Origin: Candidatus Pacearchaeota archaeon
GTDB taxonomy: Archaea > Nanobdellota > Nanobdellia > Pacearchaeales > GW2011-AR1
Length of the DNA stretch: 12,141 bases
Direction: 5' to 3'
NCBI GenBank assembly: GCA_018303825.1
Contig: JAGVXK010000005.1
Location: 1-12,141 of the forward strand
How positions within the stretch are numbered: the first letter of the stretch is position 1; the number at the start of each line of letters is the position of its first letter. Both the position numbers and the translations under genes were made by a program. Below, piece by piece: positions 5,614-12,141 of this stretch. The notes under the pieces were generated by a model. It was given only the letters and a program-made list of their open reading frames with translations, made no database searches and had not been told where the DNA came from.

Positions 5614-6114
5614 ATGGCTGATAAAGACATCATAATAAGCGAGAAACTGGACTACCGAGGTCTGGTGAAGTTTTCTGATTTGTATCAGTATGCCCATTCT
5701 TGGTTTATGGAAGAAAATTATGGGGTTATAGAGGAGAAATATTCTGAGAAGGTATCTGGAAACAACAAGGAAATAGACATTGAATGGAAGTGCACTAAAC
5801 CAATGGGAGACTATTTCAAGATAGAGCAGAAATTAGTATGGGAGATAAAGGGATTGGTGGATGTTGAAGTTGAGATAGATGGAAAGAAAACGAAAATGAA
5901 TCAAGGGCAAGTAAAGATAACTTTTAAGGGAGCAATAATAAAAGATTATAGCAGCAAATGGGACAGATCTCCGTTTAATAGATTTCTAAGAGACACTTAC
6001 AACAAGTTCATAATCCCCCAGAGAATAGATGCAATGGAAGACAAAATAAAGGCAGATATAAGATCATTAAAGGATGATTTGAAAGCTTATCTTGATTTGA
6101 GCGGAAAAAGATGA
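5614..6114 (+). CDS. Hypothetical protein (166 aa), of a type recalled as conserved in DPANN genomes
   Basis: Clean ORF with a soluble alpha/beta pattern; upstream TTTAAATA at 5564-5571 and a GAGG-containing leader. No function can be assigned. Confidence 0.8.
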   Translation: MADKDIIISEKLDYRGLVKFSDLYQYAHSWFMEENYGVIEEKYSEKVSGNNKEIDIEWKCTKPMGDYFKIEQKLVWEIKGLVDVEVEIDGKKTKMNQGQVKITFKGAIIKDYSSKWDRSPFNRFLRDTYNKFIIPQRIDAMEDKIKADIRSLKDDLKAYLDLSGKR

Positions 6115-6155
6115 TTATTCTTTCATTTTAAAGATGATTGCAAATTACCATAATA

Positions 6156-6163
6156 TTTATAAA
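6156..6163 (+). promoter_or_regulatory. TATA box (TTTATAAA) for the 6185 gene
   Basis: Ends 21 nt before the ATG at 6185. Confidence 0.65.
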
Positions 6164-6184
6164 ATAGGTCCTTTTCAAAGAAAT

Positions 6185-7555
6185 ATGAAAAAGGGCATCT
6201 TGTTGGTTGTTGTGATTGTGTGTTTGCTTGTTTTGCCTTCTGTTAGCGCATTGCAGGTTGAAAAAATTGATAAGGGCAGTGTTGTGATAGCTGAATTAAG
6301 CAATCCTGCTATTTTTGACTTTGCTATAACCAGCGCAGAAGCAGATACATTTGAGATTTATTCTTTCTTAGATGTCACGTTCAGCCCGAGAGGAACATTT
6401 GATTTGCCTGTTGGAAAGAGCACAACTGAAATAAAGGTTTATCCTGGAAAGGATTTGAGAAGGAATCTTGGAGTCTACAAATTTCAATATGAATTAAAGG
6501 GGCAAAAGTCCGGAATATTCAAAGATTTCTTAGCAATAAGAATTGTTGAACTTGGAAGTGTTATCACTATAAATGCCGAGCCACTAAAACCCTCAGATAA
6601 GCAATTGGCCTTTTCTTTGAAAAACAATGAAAATACAAATGTTGATAATATGGATGTTCATTTGGAATCCGCTTTCTTTAATTTTGATAAAAAAATATCA
6701 CTCAAGCCATATGAAAAAGTTGATTTTAATATAACTATGGATAGAAATAAAACTGCTTCGTTGCTTGCAGGGAAGTATATCATAACAGCAAATGTTCAAC
6801 TTGAAAAGGCAAAGGCTAAAGTAGAAGGAATATTAGATTATTTTGAGGAGAACAGCATTTCAGTTGATAAAACAAGTTCTGGAATAGTAGTCAGAAAAAA
6901 TGTAATAACAAAGACTAATACGGGAAATGTTCAGGCTAAGGCGGCCATAGATATTAAGAAGGATGTTTTATCAAGATTGTTTACAGTTTATTCCATAGAA
7001 CCGATGACAAGCGACAGAAAAGGCCTCACGGTTAATTATCTTTGGGAAAAAACCCTAAATCCCGGGGAAGCGTTTGCAGTTACAAGCTCTACTAATTATA
7101 CTTTGCCATTGATATTGATAATTCTTGTTGTTTTAGTTATAGTCTTCGCTAAAATATATTCATTGCAAGCCTTAAGCGTAAGCAAGAGAGTTTCATATGT
7201 AAAAACCAAGGGCGGGCAGTTTGCATTGAAAGTTACATTGCACGTTAAGGCAGGAAAGCATACAGATAATATACAAATCATTGACAAGCTTCCAGAAATG
7301 ACAAAAATATATGAGAAATATGGAAGACTTCCTGATAGGATAGACCATGCAACAAGAAGATTGTTCTGGAACATACCTAGATTGAATGCTGGAGAAGAGA
7401 GAGTATTTTCATATATCTTATATTCTAATCTCAACATTGTAGGAAGGTTTGAGCTTCCGGCGGCATCGGCCATTTTCGAAAGGGAAGGAAAGAGCGTTGA
7501 AGTCTTCTCCAACAGGGCGTTCTTTGCCATTGCCACCACCAAAAGAGAATATTAA
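6185..7555 (+). CDS. Single-pass cell-envelope protein: signal peptide, beta-sandwich domains, TM helix, C-terminal Ig-like (DUF11/COG1361-like, tentative) domain
   Basis: MKKGILLVVVIVCLLVLPSVSA signal peptide; TM YTLPLILIILVVLVIVFAKI; C-terminal IQIIDKLP...LFWNIPRLNAGEERVFSY. Start moved from 6134 to 6185 on TATA spacing. Confidence 0.8.
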   Translation: MKKGILLVVVIVCLLVLPSVSALQVEKIDKGSVVIAELSNPAIFDFAITSAEADTFEIYSFLDVTFSPRGTFDLPVGKSTTEIKVYPGKDLRRNLGVYKFQYELKGQKSGIFKDFLAIRIVELGSVITINAEPLKPSDKQLAFSLKNNENTNVDNMDVHLESAFFNFDKKISLKPYEKVDFNITMDRNKTASLLAGKYIITANVQLEKAKAKVEGILDYFEENSISVDKTSSGIVVRKNVITKTNTGNVQAKAAIDIKKDVLSRLFTVYSIEPMTSDRKGLTVNYLWEKTLNPGEAFAVTSSTNYTLPLILIILVVLVIVFAKIYSLQALSVSKRVSYVKTKGGQFALKVTLHVKAGKHTDNIQIIDKLPEMTKIYEKYGRLPDRIDHATRRLFWNIPRLNAGEERVFSYILYSNLNIVGRFELPAASAIFEREGKSVEVFSNRAFFAIATTKREY

Positions 7556-8124: not shown

Positions 8125-9594
8125 ATGAAAATATTTGAGATGATTAAGGAACAAAATTCCTATGTAAAACTACCAATTTACTTCGCTTTTGTTTTTACAT
8201 TCATTTGGTCTTTATTCCAACTAGCGGGAATTTATATTTTTGGGATTAGAGGAGGATTTCTTCCATTTTATAGCCTATATTTAGTGTTTGGATATGGCTA
8301 TTTAATCAATGTTATTATTTTTGCTTTTATAGGATTTCTTCTCGGTCTTTTTAGCCATCTATTCAATAAGAAGTGGTGTGATAAAAATTACCTAAGACTT
8401 GCCTTGCTCATTTCACTGTTCTTTAGTTTAATCTTCCTTATTAGATTAGTAATAGTGACCAACGCCTCTGCTGGCGAAGGTTGGGGTGCATTATTTGCTC
8501 TAAAGTTTGTGATTATGGGGATTCCAATCGGTTTCGTCCTTTCTTTTTCTATTTTCAGCCCGATTATATTGTCGATAAAAGGAGCTTATGCTAATTTAGA
8601 AGAAAATTCAAGAAAAACTATTAACAAAATTGCTATTTGTACAATGTTTATAGTGATAGTCCTTTACTTGCTTTCTTCTTTGTTTAATTATTCCGCGATT
8701 GCGATTGCAGAATCTTCATGTCAAGGTTTACCGAAACCAAGAAGTATTGATTTAAGCATTAATGAAATAAAGGTTTTTGAAGATTACTTAATTTTAAGTG
8801 GCGCAGGATTACCAAACAAAAAAGAGGTTTATGACAATTATGCAATTGAGAATGGGATAAATATTGAGGAAAATGGATACGCTATCTTTCCAACTTATGA
8901 CGATTGGGGCAATTATCGTGGAACCACATATGATTATTATTATAACTATAATTTAACTGTCCCTTGGTTGTTGGCACTTAAAAAAACTATAAACAACGAG
9001 ACCTTAGAGTATGAACTAGTTACTAAAGCTATTGGGGAGAAGCGTGCGACTCAAGATCCGCTAACATTGGACGACTTAATAAATAATCTGGCTTACACAC
9101 AAGCAAATACAAAAGGATCTCCTGCACCAACAATCGGTGCGCAGGGCGAATTATCAGATTACATTGACAGGAAAGGCATTTCTGCAGAAAAGCTAACTGA
9201 GTTATTTTCAAACGTCTGTTTCCCAGAAGAATCTCGCGCTTATTTCATTGCGCTGGCCGATAATCGGGCCGGAAGGGATTATTATTCATTAGATGATGTT
9301 AGATTAATTGTTAAAAAGGCAAAAGAATCAGTCAAATACTTCAGAGATACAAAAAACATACAAAGAGCGGAATGGAACATAAATCACATGGATTATTATG
9401 TATACTTTGTTTCGGGTGGTTATGGGCGATACGGAAATAGGACGGAATTAATAAACGGATTGTGCTGTGCAAATACTGACTGTTGCTTAGAAGGAGGATA
9501 TGAGGATATAATGGACAACTCAACACATGTCCTCTGGAGTTGCAGGGGATTAAATGGCGGATTGAATGTGAATTGCTCTGGACTTATTCGTTAA
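8125..9594 (+). CDS. Hypothetical polytopic membrane protein (about 5-6 N-terminal TM helices) with a large soluble domain and Cys-rich C-terminus
   Basis: Hydrophobic segments over roughly aa 14-195, then a hydrophilic domain with NxS/T sequons ending in CCANTDCC...C...C. No family recognised. Confidence 0.8.
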   Translation: MKIFEMIKEQNSYVKLPIYFAFVFTFIWSLFQLAGIYIFGIRGGFLPFYSLYLVFGYGYLINVIIFAFIGFLLGLFSHLFNKKWCDKNYLRLALLISLFFSLIFLIRLVIVTNASAGEGWGALFALKFVIMGIPIGFVLSFSIFSPIILSIKGAYANLEENSRKTINKIAICTMFIVIVLYLLSSLFNYSAIAIAESSCQGLPKPRSIDLSINEIKVFEDYLILSGAGLPNKKEVYDNYAIENGINIEENGYAIFPTYDDWGNYRGTTYDYYYNYNLTVPWLLALKKTINNETLEYELVTKAIGEKRATQDPLTLDDLINNLAYTQANTKGSPAPTIGAQGELSDYIDRKGISAEKLTELFSNVCFPEESRAYFIALADNRAGRDYYSLDDVRLIVKKAKESVKYFRDTKNIQRAEWNINHMDYYVYFVSGGYGRYGNRTELINGLCCANTDCCLEGGYEDIMDNSTHVLWSCRGLNGGLNVNCSGLIR

Positions 9595-9645
9595 ATACCC
9601 CTCAATTTCTTTCTAAAAACCCTAACTGTTACAGAATTGCTCTGA

Positions 9646-9661
9646 TCTGGGTGGGGGGATT
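9646..9661 (+). repeat. att-like direct repeat, copy 2 (tRNA-Tyr 3' fragment)
   Basis: TCTGGGTGGGGGGATT, preceded by TCTGA, a degenerate echo of the T-loop TCCGAT. Confidence 0.9.
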
Positions 9662-9800
9662 CATGCTTCTAGAAATTCAATATATCTATAGTGAAAACGT
9701 AAGTAAATGAACCAAAATAGCACGTCTTTCCCTTGATAGTCAAGACATCTTTGGTAAGATATTAATGTCATTGACTATAATAGAACAGAGCTATAAAACC

Positions 9801-9838
9801 GAAAACCTTAAATACTAAGTGTTTATTATTTATATAAA
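9801..9838 (+). promoter_or_regulatory. Promoter region of the RHH operon
   Basis: GAAAAC-CTTAAATA (BRE+TATA, 9801-9814) and a palindromic TTTATATAAA (9829-9838). Confidence 0.5.
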
Positions 9839-9845
9839 GGAAGGT

Positions 9846-9893: not shown

Positions 9894-10052
9894 ATGGAAA
9901 AGGGAGTCAAAGTTAAAAAATTTTTATTGGAAATTCCGGAAGAAATTTGGAATAAATGGAAAAATACAGTTCCCCGTTCTATTTCTTTAAATAAAGCGTT
10001 GATTGAACTATTAAAAAAGAAGGGAGAAAAAGATGAAAGCCAAAAGGGATAA
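9894..10052 (+). CDS. Ribbon-helix-helix (CopG/Arc/MetJ-like) DNA-binding protein, 52 aa
   Basis: Manual translation MEKGVKVKKFLLEIPEEIWNKWKNTVPRSISLNKALIELLKKKGEKDESQKG shows the beta strand (KFLLEIP), helix A (EEIWNKWK) and helix B (SLNKALIELLKK). Below the ORF-track length cutoff. Confidence 0.8.
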   Translation: MEKGVKVKKFLLEIPEEIWNKWKNTVPRSISLNKALIELLKKKGEKDESQKG

Positions 10053-10059
10053 AAAATCT

Positions 10060-10701
10060 ATGAAAAAAAGAGTAATGATAACGCTTTTACTAGCTATTTT
10101 ATCTATTTTCATTATGGGCTCTTTTATTTTTTTCGTTACAAAATCGACTGATAATTTAAGTATATCCAACTTAGTAATATTAAGAGAATCTGTAAAAAAT
10201 CTTTCAGAATTGAAATGTGAAGAGTTTGAAGAAGATATTTGGTGGAGTAGCGATATTGTTCATAATAGTGCTGGCTCAACAGTCTATTACACATGGAAAC
10301 CAAAAAATTTATGCAATGAAACAAAAAGCGAAAATTGTTTTTTGCAAAAGGTAATTGTAAACAGTAGAACAATTTATCTAAGCACTAATGATAAAAAAAT
10401 TGATGTAAAAAACTATGTTCAAATTTCAAGCTTGGATAAAACAGAATATAAGAGTCCGGAGAAAGGGAATTATAATATTTATCTTGCTTATGGACAATCA
10501 GAAGGAATTGAAGGAATTGAAAATAAATGGTATTGTGGATATGAAAAAAGTGATTCATATGAACTAATTAAATCGAATTCAAAATGCATATTAACTAACA
10601 AGCTTACAAGTAGTTCCGGATATTTCGGGATAAAGGTGTATGCTTCTCAATCTTCAATAGTTGATATTTTCAAGATTAAATATATTTTATGCTGGAAATA
10701 A
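10060..10701 (+). CDS. N-terminally anchored extracellular protein (213 aa) with one six-cysteine domain
   Basis: MKKRVMITLLLAILSIFIMGSFIFFV anchor/signal. Start moved from 10033 to ATG 10060, just after the RHH stop. Paralogous to the N-terminal domain of the next gene. Confidence 0.8.
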   Translation: MKKRVMITLLLAILSIFIMGSFIFFVTKSTDNLSISNLVILRESVKNLSELKCEEFEEDIWWSSDIVHNSAGSTVYYTWKPKNLCNETKSENCFLQKVIVNSRTIYLSTNDKKIDVKNYVQISSLDKTEYKSPEKGNYNIYLAYGQSEGIEGIENKWYCGYEKSDSYELIKSNSKCILTNKLTSSSGYFGIKVYASQSSIVDIFKIKYILCWK

Positions 10702-10703
10702 AA

Positions 10704-12141
10704 ATGAATAAAAGAAATTTAATCAAAAAGAATAATATCTTGATTTTTATGATATTTAGTCTTGGAGCCTTTATATTTTTAATATGGACTTCAGAGCAAG
10801 TGTCTGCAGCAAAGGCAGATCAATTTTATTATGAAAATTATACTTGTGAGAATTTCACTGATATTGTTGGATTGACGGCTATGTCTGCAAAAACTGTGGC
10901 CACATCTTCGTATTATAATTGGAGCATGGGCACTTCTTGTCCAGGAACAAAAGGTTGTGATCTTCTTTCTATATACACTTATACGAGGTATGTTAACATT
11001 GTTGATAGCACAAATATGCCAGTTGGAGGAAGCTATACTCAAATTGGAAATAAAACAGAATCACCAGTATCCGCCTGGACAGGAATCAGATATGCTAGTT
11101 ATAATGACGCTCCGGTTAATGACACGGCGCTCGGTCCACGATGGGAATGCGCAGCCATTACATCTCCAAATAATACATGCAGTGTATTGGAGAAAGGATT
11201 TAACAATCGTTCAATAAACTATTCTGTTCGATTGTATGCAGGTTATGGCGGCGGAGCAAATAAATGGAGAGTTCTTATTGATGTCTTTAACATAAGATAT
11301 CCATGGTGCTGGACACCAATTATTTCTGATGCGAAGGTTTCTCCTGAAAGTGAAGATTATAACACTCAATTCACTTTTACAATTAATGTTACGAATCCCA
11401 TAGCAACAACAAATGTTTCTTTATGGACAAGGACTGTCGGAGGAAGTTGGACTTTTGTAAGCTCTCGGACGTGTACAAATTGTAGTAGACAAAATTTAAC
11501 ATTCACAAAAACATTCACTTCGGGCGATATTGGAGACCAGGAATTCAAGTTCAATGCAACAGATAATCAAGGATTTAGTACCCAAGCTGGAAATCCTTCA
11601 ACTCTTGGAACAAGAACAAATGAATGCATAGATTCTGGAAATGATTGCGTGTTTACGATAACAAATGTTGTTGTATCATCGGGAGCTCCCACTCTTGAAT
11701 ATGAAACAGTTAATGGAGTTACTTCTGAAGCTACAGAAGGGTGGGGAAAGCCAAACTGGGTATTTAGTGTAAACGTAAGCAATCCGGCAGGGGGAGCAGG
11801 AAATATATCTTTAAATCTCAGTATCAATACTGGATCTGGTTTTGTAAAAAAGGCAAATTCCACCTGTTTTGCTCCATGCTCAACTCCGGCAAATTTCACA
11901 TTTTATCTTAATCTTAGCTGTTCTGATATTTCAGGTACTGCTCAATATAGATTTACAGCCACAAATTTAAATGGCACTTCAACTACAACACAATCCTTCA
12001 TAATCGAGAAAGATGACATAACATTTGAGCATGTTCTTGGAAATGGAAGCATTGCAAACAGATCTGGAGAACAGCTTGATGGATTTGAGCTGAGAGTGTT
12101 TGACAATGATAATAACACTTATATTATGAATAATACAAATA
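10704..12141 (+). CDS. Large secreted surface glycoprotein (adhesin/S-layer-like), 3'-partial
   Basis: Open frame of 479 codons from ATG 10704 to the window end (absent from the track because no stop). Signal peptide ending VSA; Thr/Asn/Ser-rich; about 24 NxS/T sequons; repeated Ig-like units. Confidence 0.88.
   Translation, partial: MNKRNLIKKNNILIFMIFSLGAFIFLIWTSEQVSAAKADQFYYENYTCENFTDIVGLTAMSAKTVATSSYYNWSMGTSCPGTKGCDLLSIYTYTRYVNIVDSTNMPVGGSYTQIGNKTESPVSAWTGIRYASYNDAPVNDTALGPRWECAAITSPNNTCSVLEKGFNNRSINYSVRLYAGYGGGANKWRVLIDVFNIRYPWCWTPIISDAKVSPESEDYNTQFTFTINVTNPIATTNVSLWTRTVGGSWTFVSSRTCTNCSRQNLTFTKTFTSGDIGDQEFKFNATDNQGFSTQAGNPSTLGTRTNECIDSGNDCVFTITNVVVSSGAPTLEYETVNGVTSEATEGWGKPNWVFSVNVSNPAGGAGNISLNLSINTGSGFVKKANSTCFAPCSTPANFTFYLNLSCSDISGTAQYRFTATNLNGTSTTTQSFIIEKDDITFEHVLGNGSIANRSGEQLDGFELRVFDNDNNTYIMNNTN

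Follow-up and report, generated by a model that had tools for sequence, protein, structure and literature searches.

Phages have receptor-binding fibers whose tip domains can be exchanged, with a small accessory gene alongside (such as T-even gp37/gp38 and Tfa-type tail-fiber assembly proteins). Bdellovibrio, a bacterium that attacks other bacteria, has fiber-associated proteins that are trimeric and carry variable C-terminal tips, and episymbionts of the DPANN archaea and of the candidate phyla radiation (CPR) carry giant surface proteins, such as the SPEARE proteins. To our knowledge, the ways in which DPANN archaea (genomes of 0.5 to 1 Mb) find and hold their hosts are largely unknown, and almost none of the Nanoarchaeia (Pacearchaeota/Woesearchaeota type) have been cultured. 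Giant proteins have been discussed for the nanohaloarchaea (PMC10266531). Here, we describe a gene pair at the end of a 12,141-bp contig (JAGVXK010000005.1 of assembly GCA_018303825.1, the whole of which is referred to here as the window) from a Candidatus Pacearchaeota archaeon with an AT-rich genome of 806 kb that is 85.7% complete. The first gene encodes a short membrane-anchored protein (P0001, B type), and the gene directly downstream encodes a giant surface protein (A type) whose first mature domain, the tip, is a paralog of the domain of the short protein.

The locus resembles phage fibers in having a long, fiber-like protein with a distal domain that is swapped between close relatives, a conserved shaft, and a small linked accessory gene, and gpJ of phage lambda is among the jelly-roll matches to its domains. 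It differs in that the giant is an archaeal cellular protein with its own membrane anchor, a PRC-barrel tail, and an N-terminal variable domain, and in that the accessory gene lies upstream, is paralogous to the tip, and encodes a membrane-anchored protein; no sequence relationship was found. Among the Bdellovibrio fibers (PDB 8okh for Bd1399 and 8ond for Bd2133), Bd1399 is one of the best structural matches to both of our models (Z 7.7 and 7.3), but these scores are at the jelly-roll background level, and no sequence similarity or paired paralog was found. Carbohydrate-binding module (CBM) families CBM36 and CBM6/35, the PNGase F N-domain, and the BcsB CBD share with our domain an eight-stranded jelly roll of similar size (Z 6.4 to 7.7, with 100 to 128 residues aligned). 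However, there is no Pfam CBM match, the Z scores of 6.4 to 7.5 for CBM6/35/36 are at the level of unrelated jelly rolls, and the four conserved disulfides and sequence motifs are specific to the new family. With the giant proteins of DPANN archaea and CPR bacteria, such as those of the nanohaloarchaea (PMC10266531), the giant shares very large size, richness in N-glycosylation sequons, membrane anchoring, occurrence in a tiny DPANN genome, and presumed host contact, but its only Pfam domains are MG2, GEVED, and PRC, and it has a paired paralog and an exchanged tip. The general logic is familiar from phage fibers and bacterial adhesins, in which a long surface protein has a distal binding domain that recombines and an accessory gene is linked to it. 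New here are the uncatalogued domain family and the tip as an exchangeable cassette. We found no description of the domain, the gene pair, or the tip exchange in the literature searched, whose coverage was incomplete, so that novelty is unproven.

Results

The gene pair and its shared domain

Both genes are on the forward strand, and the giant open reading frame (ORF) runs past the contig end at 12141. Their features, with lengths in amino acids (aa), are as follows.

10033..10701, + strand: B-type protein P0001, 222 aa plus stop, with a signal-anchor helix, a linker of ~25 aa, and a C-terminal jelly-roll domain
10195..10698, + strand: B-type six-cysteine jelly-roll domain, aa 55-222 of P0001
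10704..10808, + strand: predicted cleavable signal peptide of the giant protein, MNKRN...EQVSA / AKADQ, from a reading of the sequence
10809..11318, + strand: A-type jelly-roll tip with which the mature giant protein begins; hypervariable, with 8 N-glycosylation sequons
11319..12141, + strand: conserved stalk of the giant protein, first part only, up to the contig end

P0001 has an alternative start at ATG 10060. For the giant, the start at ATG 10704 (MNKRN...) is kept in homologs and gives a 2-nt gap after the short gene, the distance reported by the first-pass annotation of this DNA, which holds if the giant starts there; an alternative upstream ATG at 10689 would give a 13-nt overlap with the short gene.

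The first-pass annotation had proposed from a manual alignment that the short protein and the giant tip are paralogs with six matching cysteines and matching motifs, and this is borne out. BLASTP aligned the short protein with the giant N terminus at E 3e-7 (22% identity over ~230 columns), with the six cysteines and all of the proposed motifs in register, and the predicted strand order matches. Comparison of a short-type with a tip-type profile by hhalign gave a probability of 99.8% (E 2e-30), in a test that is not fully independent, as the short-type profile included 6 tip-type sequences among its 67 rows. Searched against 1.84 billion representatives, a profile built from only the two domains recovered 106 proteins at E<=1e-3, of which 65 reach E<=1e-10. 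The two window copies are distinguished by hidden Markov models (HMMs) of the two types: the tip scores 240 bits on the A-type HMM and 60 on the B-type HMM, and P0001 scores 176 bits on the B-type HMM and 42 on the A-type HMM. The tip has the further marks of an A-type domain, namely its position directly after a predicted signal peptide with K-x-D-Q, six paired cysteines, a Y.WCW(T)P end, and an adjoining conserved stalk. P0001 has those of a B-type protein, an N-terminal transmembrane anchor, the domain at the extreme C terminus, and a gene directly upstream of an A-type giant.

The domain, which had not been recognized at first pass, is indeed uncatalogued. The only Pfam hit was to CENP_C_N at 14.5 bits (cutoff, 27) for the short protein, with nothing for the tip, and NCBIfam has no family for either. 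A sequence profile search of the PDB gave no match to the domain at E<=1, and the ESM Atlas returned only subthreshold matches (best feature score, 0.79; TM score, <0.5). No third copy of the domain was found in the 85.7%-complete genome of the organism itself.

Exchange of the tip

Two copies of the pair, on contigs L027 and L029, have 85 to 99% DNA identity over 6.6 kb that includes the whole B gene and 4 kb of stalk, and within this stretch a sharply bounded block of ~500 nt, coinciding with the A-type domain, falls to 50 to 62% identity. The encoded tips are 46% identical in amino acid sequence, whereas the B proteins are 90% identical. Nonsynonymous (dN) and synonymous (dS) divergence by the Nei-Gojobori method was 0.50 and 0.89 for the tip (dN/dS, 0.56), 0.03 to 0.07 and 0.19 to 0.45 for the stalk (dN/dS, 0.08 to 0.21), and 0.048 and 0.28 for the B domain (dN/dS, 0.17). 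In the phylogenetic tree, the two B domains are sisters and the two tips belong to different A subclades. The raised dS and the sharp borders indicate that an older, foreign allele was recombined in, rather than that point mutations accumulated in place. The DNA alignments thus show the tip to be an exchangeable cassette, replaced by recombination with distant A-type alleles, with the stalk and B nearly unchanged. The same ranking was obtained for the window against L009 (dN of 0.50 for the tip, 0.15 for the stalk, and 0.195 for the B domain). L027 and L029 belong to one metagenome-assembled genome (MAG), in which they could be alleles of co-binned strains instead of separate loci of a single cell.

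A general rule that the tip always diverges faster than the stalk was rejected, as it describes only close pairs, distant pairs being saturated near 50% in both parts. Metagenome contigs aligned to the window gave fragmentary cover, in which the tip bins (10890-11310) were left uncovered by related strains in three runs and the stalk bins were covered; we did not count this as evidence. Nor did we count an 832-nt metagenome contig that aligns to 11280-11666 at 82% identity and has 359 unaligned bases at the place of the tip, which fits tip divergence.

The distances among A domains correlate with those among B domains (r = 0.67), as they do with those among stalks (r = 0.64), and B correlates with the stalk at r = 0.83. 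Shared ancestry explains the A/B correlation, which drops to a partial r of 0.33 given the stalk, so it carries no specific signal of coevolution. The cognate partner suggested at first pass, if taken as a coevolving lock for the tip, is not supported, given this value and the L027/L029 pair, in which B stays 90% identical while the adjoining tip drops to 46%.

Recurrence and operon context

We searched two samples of 401 genomes each, one drawn from the phylum and one from the order, both including this genome and G249. The family is present in 12 genomes of these ~800. In 9 of the 12, representing 8 genera and 3 families, a short gene lies upstream of a giant gene on the same contig and strand; the remaining 3 have a giant only, and none of the 12 has a short gene without a giant. 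Further pairs occur on metagenome or MAG contigs (L009, L011, L027, L029, and L030), and the relatives carry the labels Nanoarchaeota or Candidatus Nanoarchaeia. The arrangement therefore recurs in many independent loci and is no one-off duplication, the outcome that would have spoken against the proposed pairing. B is never alone and always upstream of the giant gene, and start and stop codons often overlap: against the 2-nt gap in the window, the two genes overlap by 4 nt in L009 and L027 and by 16 nt in L024. Judged from gene order and codon overlap, B and the giant are translationally coupled and inherited together.

A second gene type is associated with the pair. In seven loci, an MFS-like half-transporter and fused (or split) MFS/spermidine-synthase-like genes, one to three in number, lie between or before the two genes. 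These MFS/SpeE-like genes are upstream of the giant at L022:4327-6689, L023:5358-8371, L025:2735-5051, L031:6130-8413, L032:2716-5063, L033:1102-3446, and L010:690-2635, and in all seven of these loci the intervening genes pass the cutoff of NCBIfam NF037959 or match members that do. In all three giant-only genomes, the giant is directly preceded by the MFS half and the fused MFS/SpeE gene. The operon has the consensus order winged-helix gene, B, MFS half, MFS/SpeE, and giant, and the window has the minimal form, B plus giant. No MFS/SpeE homolog is in the window, and none was found in the 85.7%-complete genome with the single query P0011, so that absence from the genome is not shown.

One typical B-plus-giant pair (L026; G195:C22, CAYMBN010000022.1) is labeled "uncultured Methanosarcinales archaeon." The label is apparently wrong or the contig misbinned, as the genome falls in the same class as the window.

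Two clades of the domain family

The uncatalogued family comprises ~100 clusters in Nanoarchaeia, and our survey collected ~114 proteins. It is ancient and has two clades. In a maximum-likelihood tree, the B clade (65 members; support, 1.0) includes P0001 and the A clade (23 members; support, 0.95) includes the window tip; a third group and some basal giants fall between them. Because the clades are separate and well supported, the duplication that gave rise to A and B is old and not a local accident. In the 34 A-type proteins, the domain directly follows the signal peptide at the N terminus of a long protein. In the 70 B-type proteins, it is at the extreme C terminus of an N-anchored protein, which is short in 29 and has an extra domain of 150 to 500 aa, of unknown type, ahead of it in 41. 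A small basal group has a signal peptide, the domain, and a C-terminal transmembrane anchor, and there are two forms with an internal domain.

Across the 88 sequences used for cysteine analysis, cysteines are kept or lost strictly pairwise (C1-C6, C2-C3, C4-C5, and the B-specific C7-C8), from which we argue that the domain has three or four disulfides and is extracellular. The window B copy lacks both partners of the fourth pair, C7-C8, which is present in most B-type members. Motifs specific to the family are CE.F.D..W, Y..W, YvQI, and D.F.I.Y.WCW. The two types also differ in composition. The contrast drawn at first pass between a lysine-rich short protein with few sequons and a sequon-rich tip (2 versus 8 sequons here) extends to the family: A-type domains have 4.1 sequons per 100 aa, 3.5% lysine, and 8.9% aspartate plus glutamate, and B-type domains have 1.5 sequons per 100 aa, 7.4% lysine, and 15.2% aspartate plus glutamate.

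Predicted fold

AlphaFold models of P0001 and the tip had a predicted local distance difference test (pLDDT) score of 84.8 and 85.8, respectively. Each has an N-terminal helix followed by a beta sandwich (in P0001, a helix at aa 8-36 and a sandwich at aa 61-221, with pLDDT of >90 over most of the domain), and the eight to nine strands come in the same order in both, corresponding one to one through the sequence alignment. In an exhaustive structure comparison, both models matched the same jelly rolls, in a flat list (top Z, 8.2 and 7.7; 100 to 139 residues aligned) of small virus capsids, CBM36/CBM6, the PNGase F N-domain, the furin P domain, lambda gpJ, and Bdellovibrio Bd1399; the CBMs, PNGase F, lambda gpJ, and the Bdellovibrio fiber tip are among the matches at Z 6.7 to 8.2. 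Foldseek against the PDB, with a model that included the transmembrane helix, gave weak capsid-like jelly-roll matches (TM score, 0.2 to 0.33), and among TNF/C1q-like proteins there was only a weak match, to 4-1BBL (Z 6.0 and 5.7 to 5.8). The domain is thus predicted to belong to the eight-stranded jelly-roll beta-sandwich fold class, in agreement with the jelly roll guessed at first pass, and the matches to these models establish the fold class and no specific relative.

Architecture of the giant protein

The full giant protein was read from an identical, longer metagenome contig (P0008, L003:10657-17961). It has 2434 aa, 79 N-glycosylation sequons, and 35 cysteines. Pfam assigns MG2 (1377-1452), GEVED (1982-2047), and PRC-barrel (2352-2420) domains only, and no protease or nuclease domain. 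The PRC barrel sits behind hydrophobic segments near the C terminus and is probably cytoplasmic. This terminus (L003:17600-17961), in which two to three hydrophobic segments precede the PRC barrel, is an unusual tail for an adhesin-like protein.

At the other end, the N terminus is predicted to be a cleavable signal peptide, and the first mature domain would therefore form the end of the chain farthest from the membrane anchor. A-type members share an AxA-like site and, next to it, a K-x-D-Q that is nearly invariant. This motif comes right after the predicted cleavage site (window 10809-10823; alignment K42 and Q45), is absent from B-type proteins, and may serve for modification or cross-linking.

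A strain variant of the giant, P0013, is 99 to 100% identical to P0008 over residues 1-470, apart from a 45-residue gap inside the tip, 81% identical over residues 471-640, and 21 to 29% identical beyond residue 640. This collapse of identity indicates that the stalk is mosaic too.

The small upstream ORF and other features of the window

Ahead of the pair, the first-pass annotation had included a third gene in the system.

9894..10052, + strand: conserved 52-aa ORF (the "RHH" of that annotation), from the ORF list

This ORF overlaps the first ATG of the short gene by 20 nt and is probably cotranscribed with it here; a look-up of RNA runs for this DNA returned none. Its strand-helix-helix pattern was read by eye only, sequence matches to Pfam and the PDB being at chance level (only chance-level Pfam hits at E<=1 and no PDB match better than E 0.34). 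It is single copy in this genome, and ORFs of 49 to 52 aa related to it form at least 294 clusters, at 70 to 98% identity, in Nanoarchaeota/Woesearchaeota-type MAGs. Elsewhere, its homologs overlap by 11 nt with downstream, unrelated membrane-anchored proteins, and most other loci of the module have an 83- to 97-aa winged-helix gene in its place. We therefore regard it as a widespread DPANN gene, among the most conserved small ones in this analysis, that does not belong to the module. The variable position behind it may be a "surface-gene slot" with this gene at its head. At L034:4001-4150 and L037:4001-4150, the small ORF overlaps the start of a transmembrane-anchored protein whose family differs per locus, and in L037 that protein is followed by one of 1033 aa with 64 cysteines.

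Upstream of the 52-aa ORF, inspection of the sequence shows a TATA-like TTATATAAA at 9830-9838. The intergenic region at 9630-9840, upstream of the operon, has high summed depth in many metagenome contigs with differing flanks, especially at 9711-9747, and short inverted repeats were spotted in it by eye. Just upstream of the operon, a 489-aa protein (8125-9594) has no Pfam or NCBIfam family; its five N-terminal hydrophobic segments precede a region containing 10 cysteines and 7 sequons. No family was assigned to a 473-aa secreted or anchored protein (6134-7555) or to a 166-aa protein (5614-6114). Other genes of the window include RtcB, archease, an SFM1-like methyltransferase, a patatin-like protein, and an M10/CARDB protease.

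Discussion

The reading that we favor, with a little less than even confidence, is that the pair is a conserved cell-surface module of Nanoarchaeia composed of a variable specificity head and a constant B partner. The tip would be the ligand-binding head that determines specificity, probably for a carbohydrate or a surface structure of a host or partner cell. B would be an invariant partner able to work with any tip, and not a second variable receptor; it would most likely pair with a conserved face or with core features of the A-type jelly roll. In doing so, it might dock or anchor the free N-terminal end of the giant at the membrane of its own cell, or the two domains might form a head of two jelly rolls. 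In other lineages, the MFS/spermidine-synthase-like membrane proteins of the same operon may share or replace the accessory role of B. In its general form, the two-component adhesion or recognition system proposed at first pass is plausible. A more specific claim, possible but rather doubtful in our view, is that this is an undescribed archaeal system for host or partner recognition, in which a recombination-swappable jelly-roll head on a giant fiber works with an invariant, paralogous coreceptor or dock encoded upstream and, in some lineages, with membrane-bound enzymes resembling spermidine synthase. On that claim, the tip allele would decide to which host cells a Pacearchaeota-like episymbiont can attach.

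Several observations weigh against the favored reading. The B linker here is ~25 aa long and the giant ectodomain is ~2100 aa, so contact between A and B would need a giant that is folded back or lying along the surface. The B-type stalk ranges from 20 to 500 aa, a poor fit to a fixed docking geometry. B is dispensable in some lineages, as three genomes have the giant without it. Tip and stalk are equally diverged in distant pairs (~45 to 55% identity). Two pairs per genome are not established from L027 and L029, and the tip exchange holds either way. Finally, the top Z scores of 7.7 to 8.2 stand in a flat list at a level that unrelated models also reach, so "lectin-like" denotes a resemblance of class only.

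The range of B stalk lengths is what would be expected if the two proteins were independent adhesins with no A-B contact, the giant binding a variable ligand at long range and the short protein a constant ligand at short range, so that capture would be followed by close docking of the host and symbiont membranes. We consider this unlikely, although both domains are predicted to be surface-exposed jelly rolls, a fold class that often binds carbohydrate, and the conservation of B while A varies fits different ligands. Against it, B never occurs without an A-type giant in the ~800 genomes, and the fixed order and frequent stop/start overlap suggest a stoichiometric partnership. The few sequons and the highly charged surface of B are likewise unlike an exposed, glycan-rich tip.

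Translational coupling, with B made first, is also what an export or folding helper would show. On this account, B would serve the 2434-aa chain as a homologous template or holdase tethered to the membrane, acting as the N-terminal tip leaves the Sec channel and assisting with disulfides, glycosylation, or retention of the chain until its export is finished, and would be analogous to the phage tail-fiber assembly proteins that are encoded beside the fiber gene. B is invariant across differing tips and is placed at the membrane where the tip would first emerge, and polytopic MFS/SpeE-like proteins take the same operon position in other lineages. We nevertheless judge a helper role to be improbable, since we found no precedent for a chaperone that is paralogous to its client domain, in the long B forms the domain lies as much as 500 aa away from the membrane, and B has conserved disulfides of its own and looks like a stable surface domain.

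It is very improbable that the short copy is a donor cassette that feeds gene conversion of the tip, or a decoy that mimics the tip against self-binding or attackers. The paralogy and adjacency of B and A, together with the replacement of the tip by recombination, would suit such a role, which the first-pass annotation had raised as a reservoir for tip variation. However, B and A are only 22 to 26% identical, and the sole DNA tract that they share is 12 nt long and lies at a homologous KTE codon run, so gene conversion between B and A was rejected. The two types form old, well-supported, separate clades, and the replaced tips group with tips of other A-type lineages and not with B. The donor role is thus largely refuted, and B does not track tip changes as a specific decoy would need to.

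Diversity-generating retroelements have been reported in DPANN archaea, and mutagenic retrohoming into the tip would account for localized hypervariability of a surface domain, but we give this hardly any credence, because the whole 500-nt domain is divergent, with indels, 40 to 50% of bases changed, and dS raised as well as dN, which points to old alleles exchanged by recombination and not to adenine-targeted changes in a variable repeat of 100 to 150 nt. Pfam and NCBIfam scans, which covered selected neighboring ORFs and not the rest of the loci, found no reverse-transcriptase family, and no direct repeat resembling a template repeat is present within the two genes of the window.

The analysis defines a conserved gene module and, within it, the one piece, 170 residues long, that strains exchange while being nearly identical elsewhere, as would be expected of a specificity determinant. 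Small, disulfide-stabilized domains of this kind are a concrete handle on host recognition in uncultured DPANN archaea, and the tip allele is a marker that could be correlated with the co-occurrence of hosts in metagenomes. The fused MFS/spermidine-synthase-like family, which is uncharacterized and widespread, is a second lead through its link to a giant surface protein.

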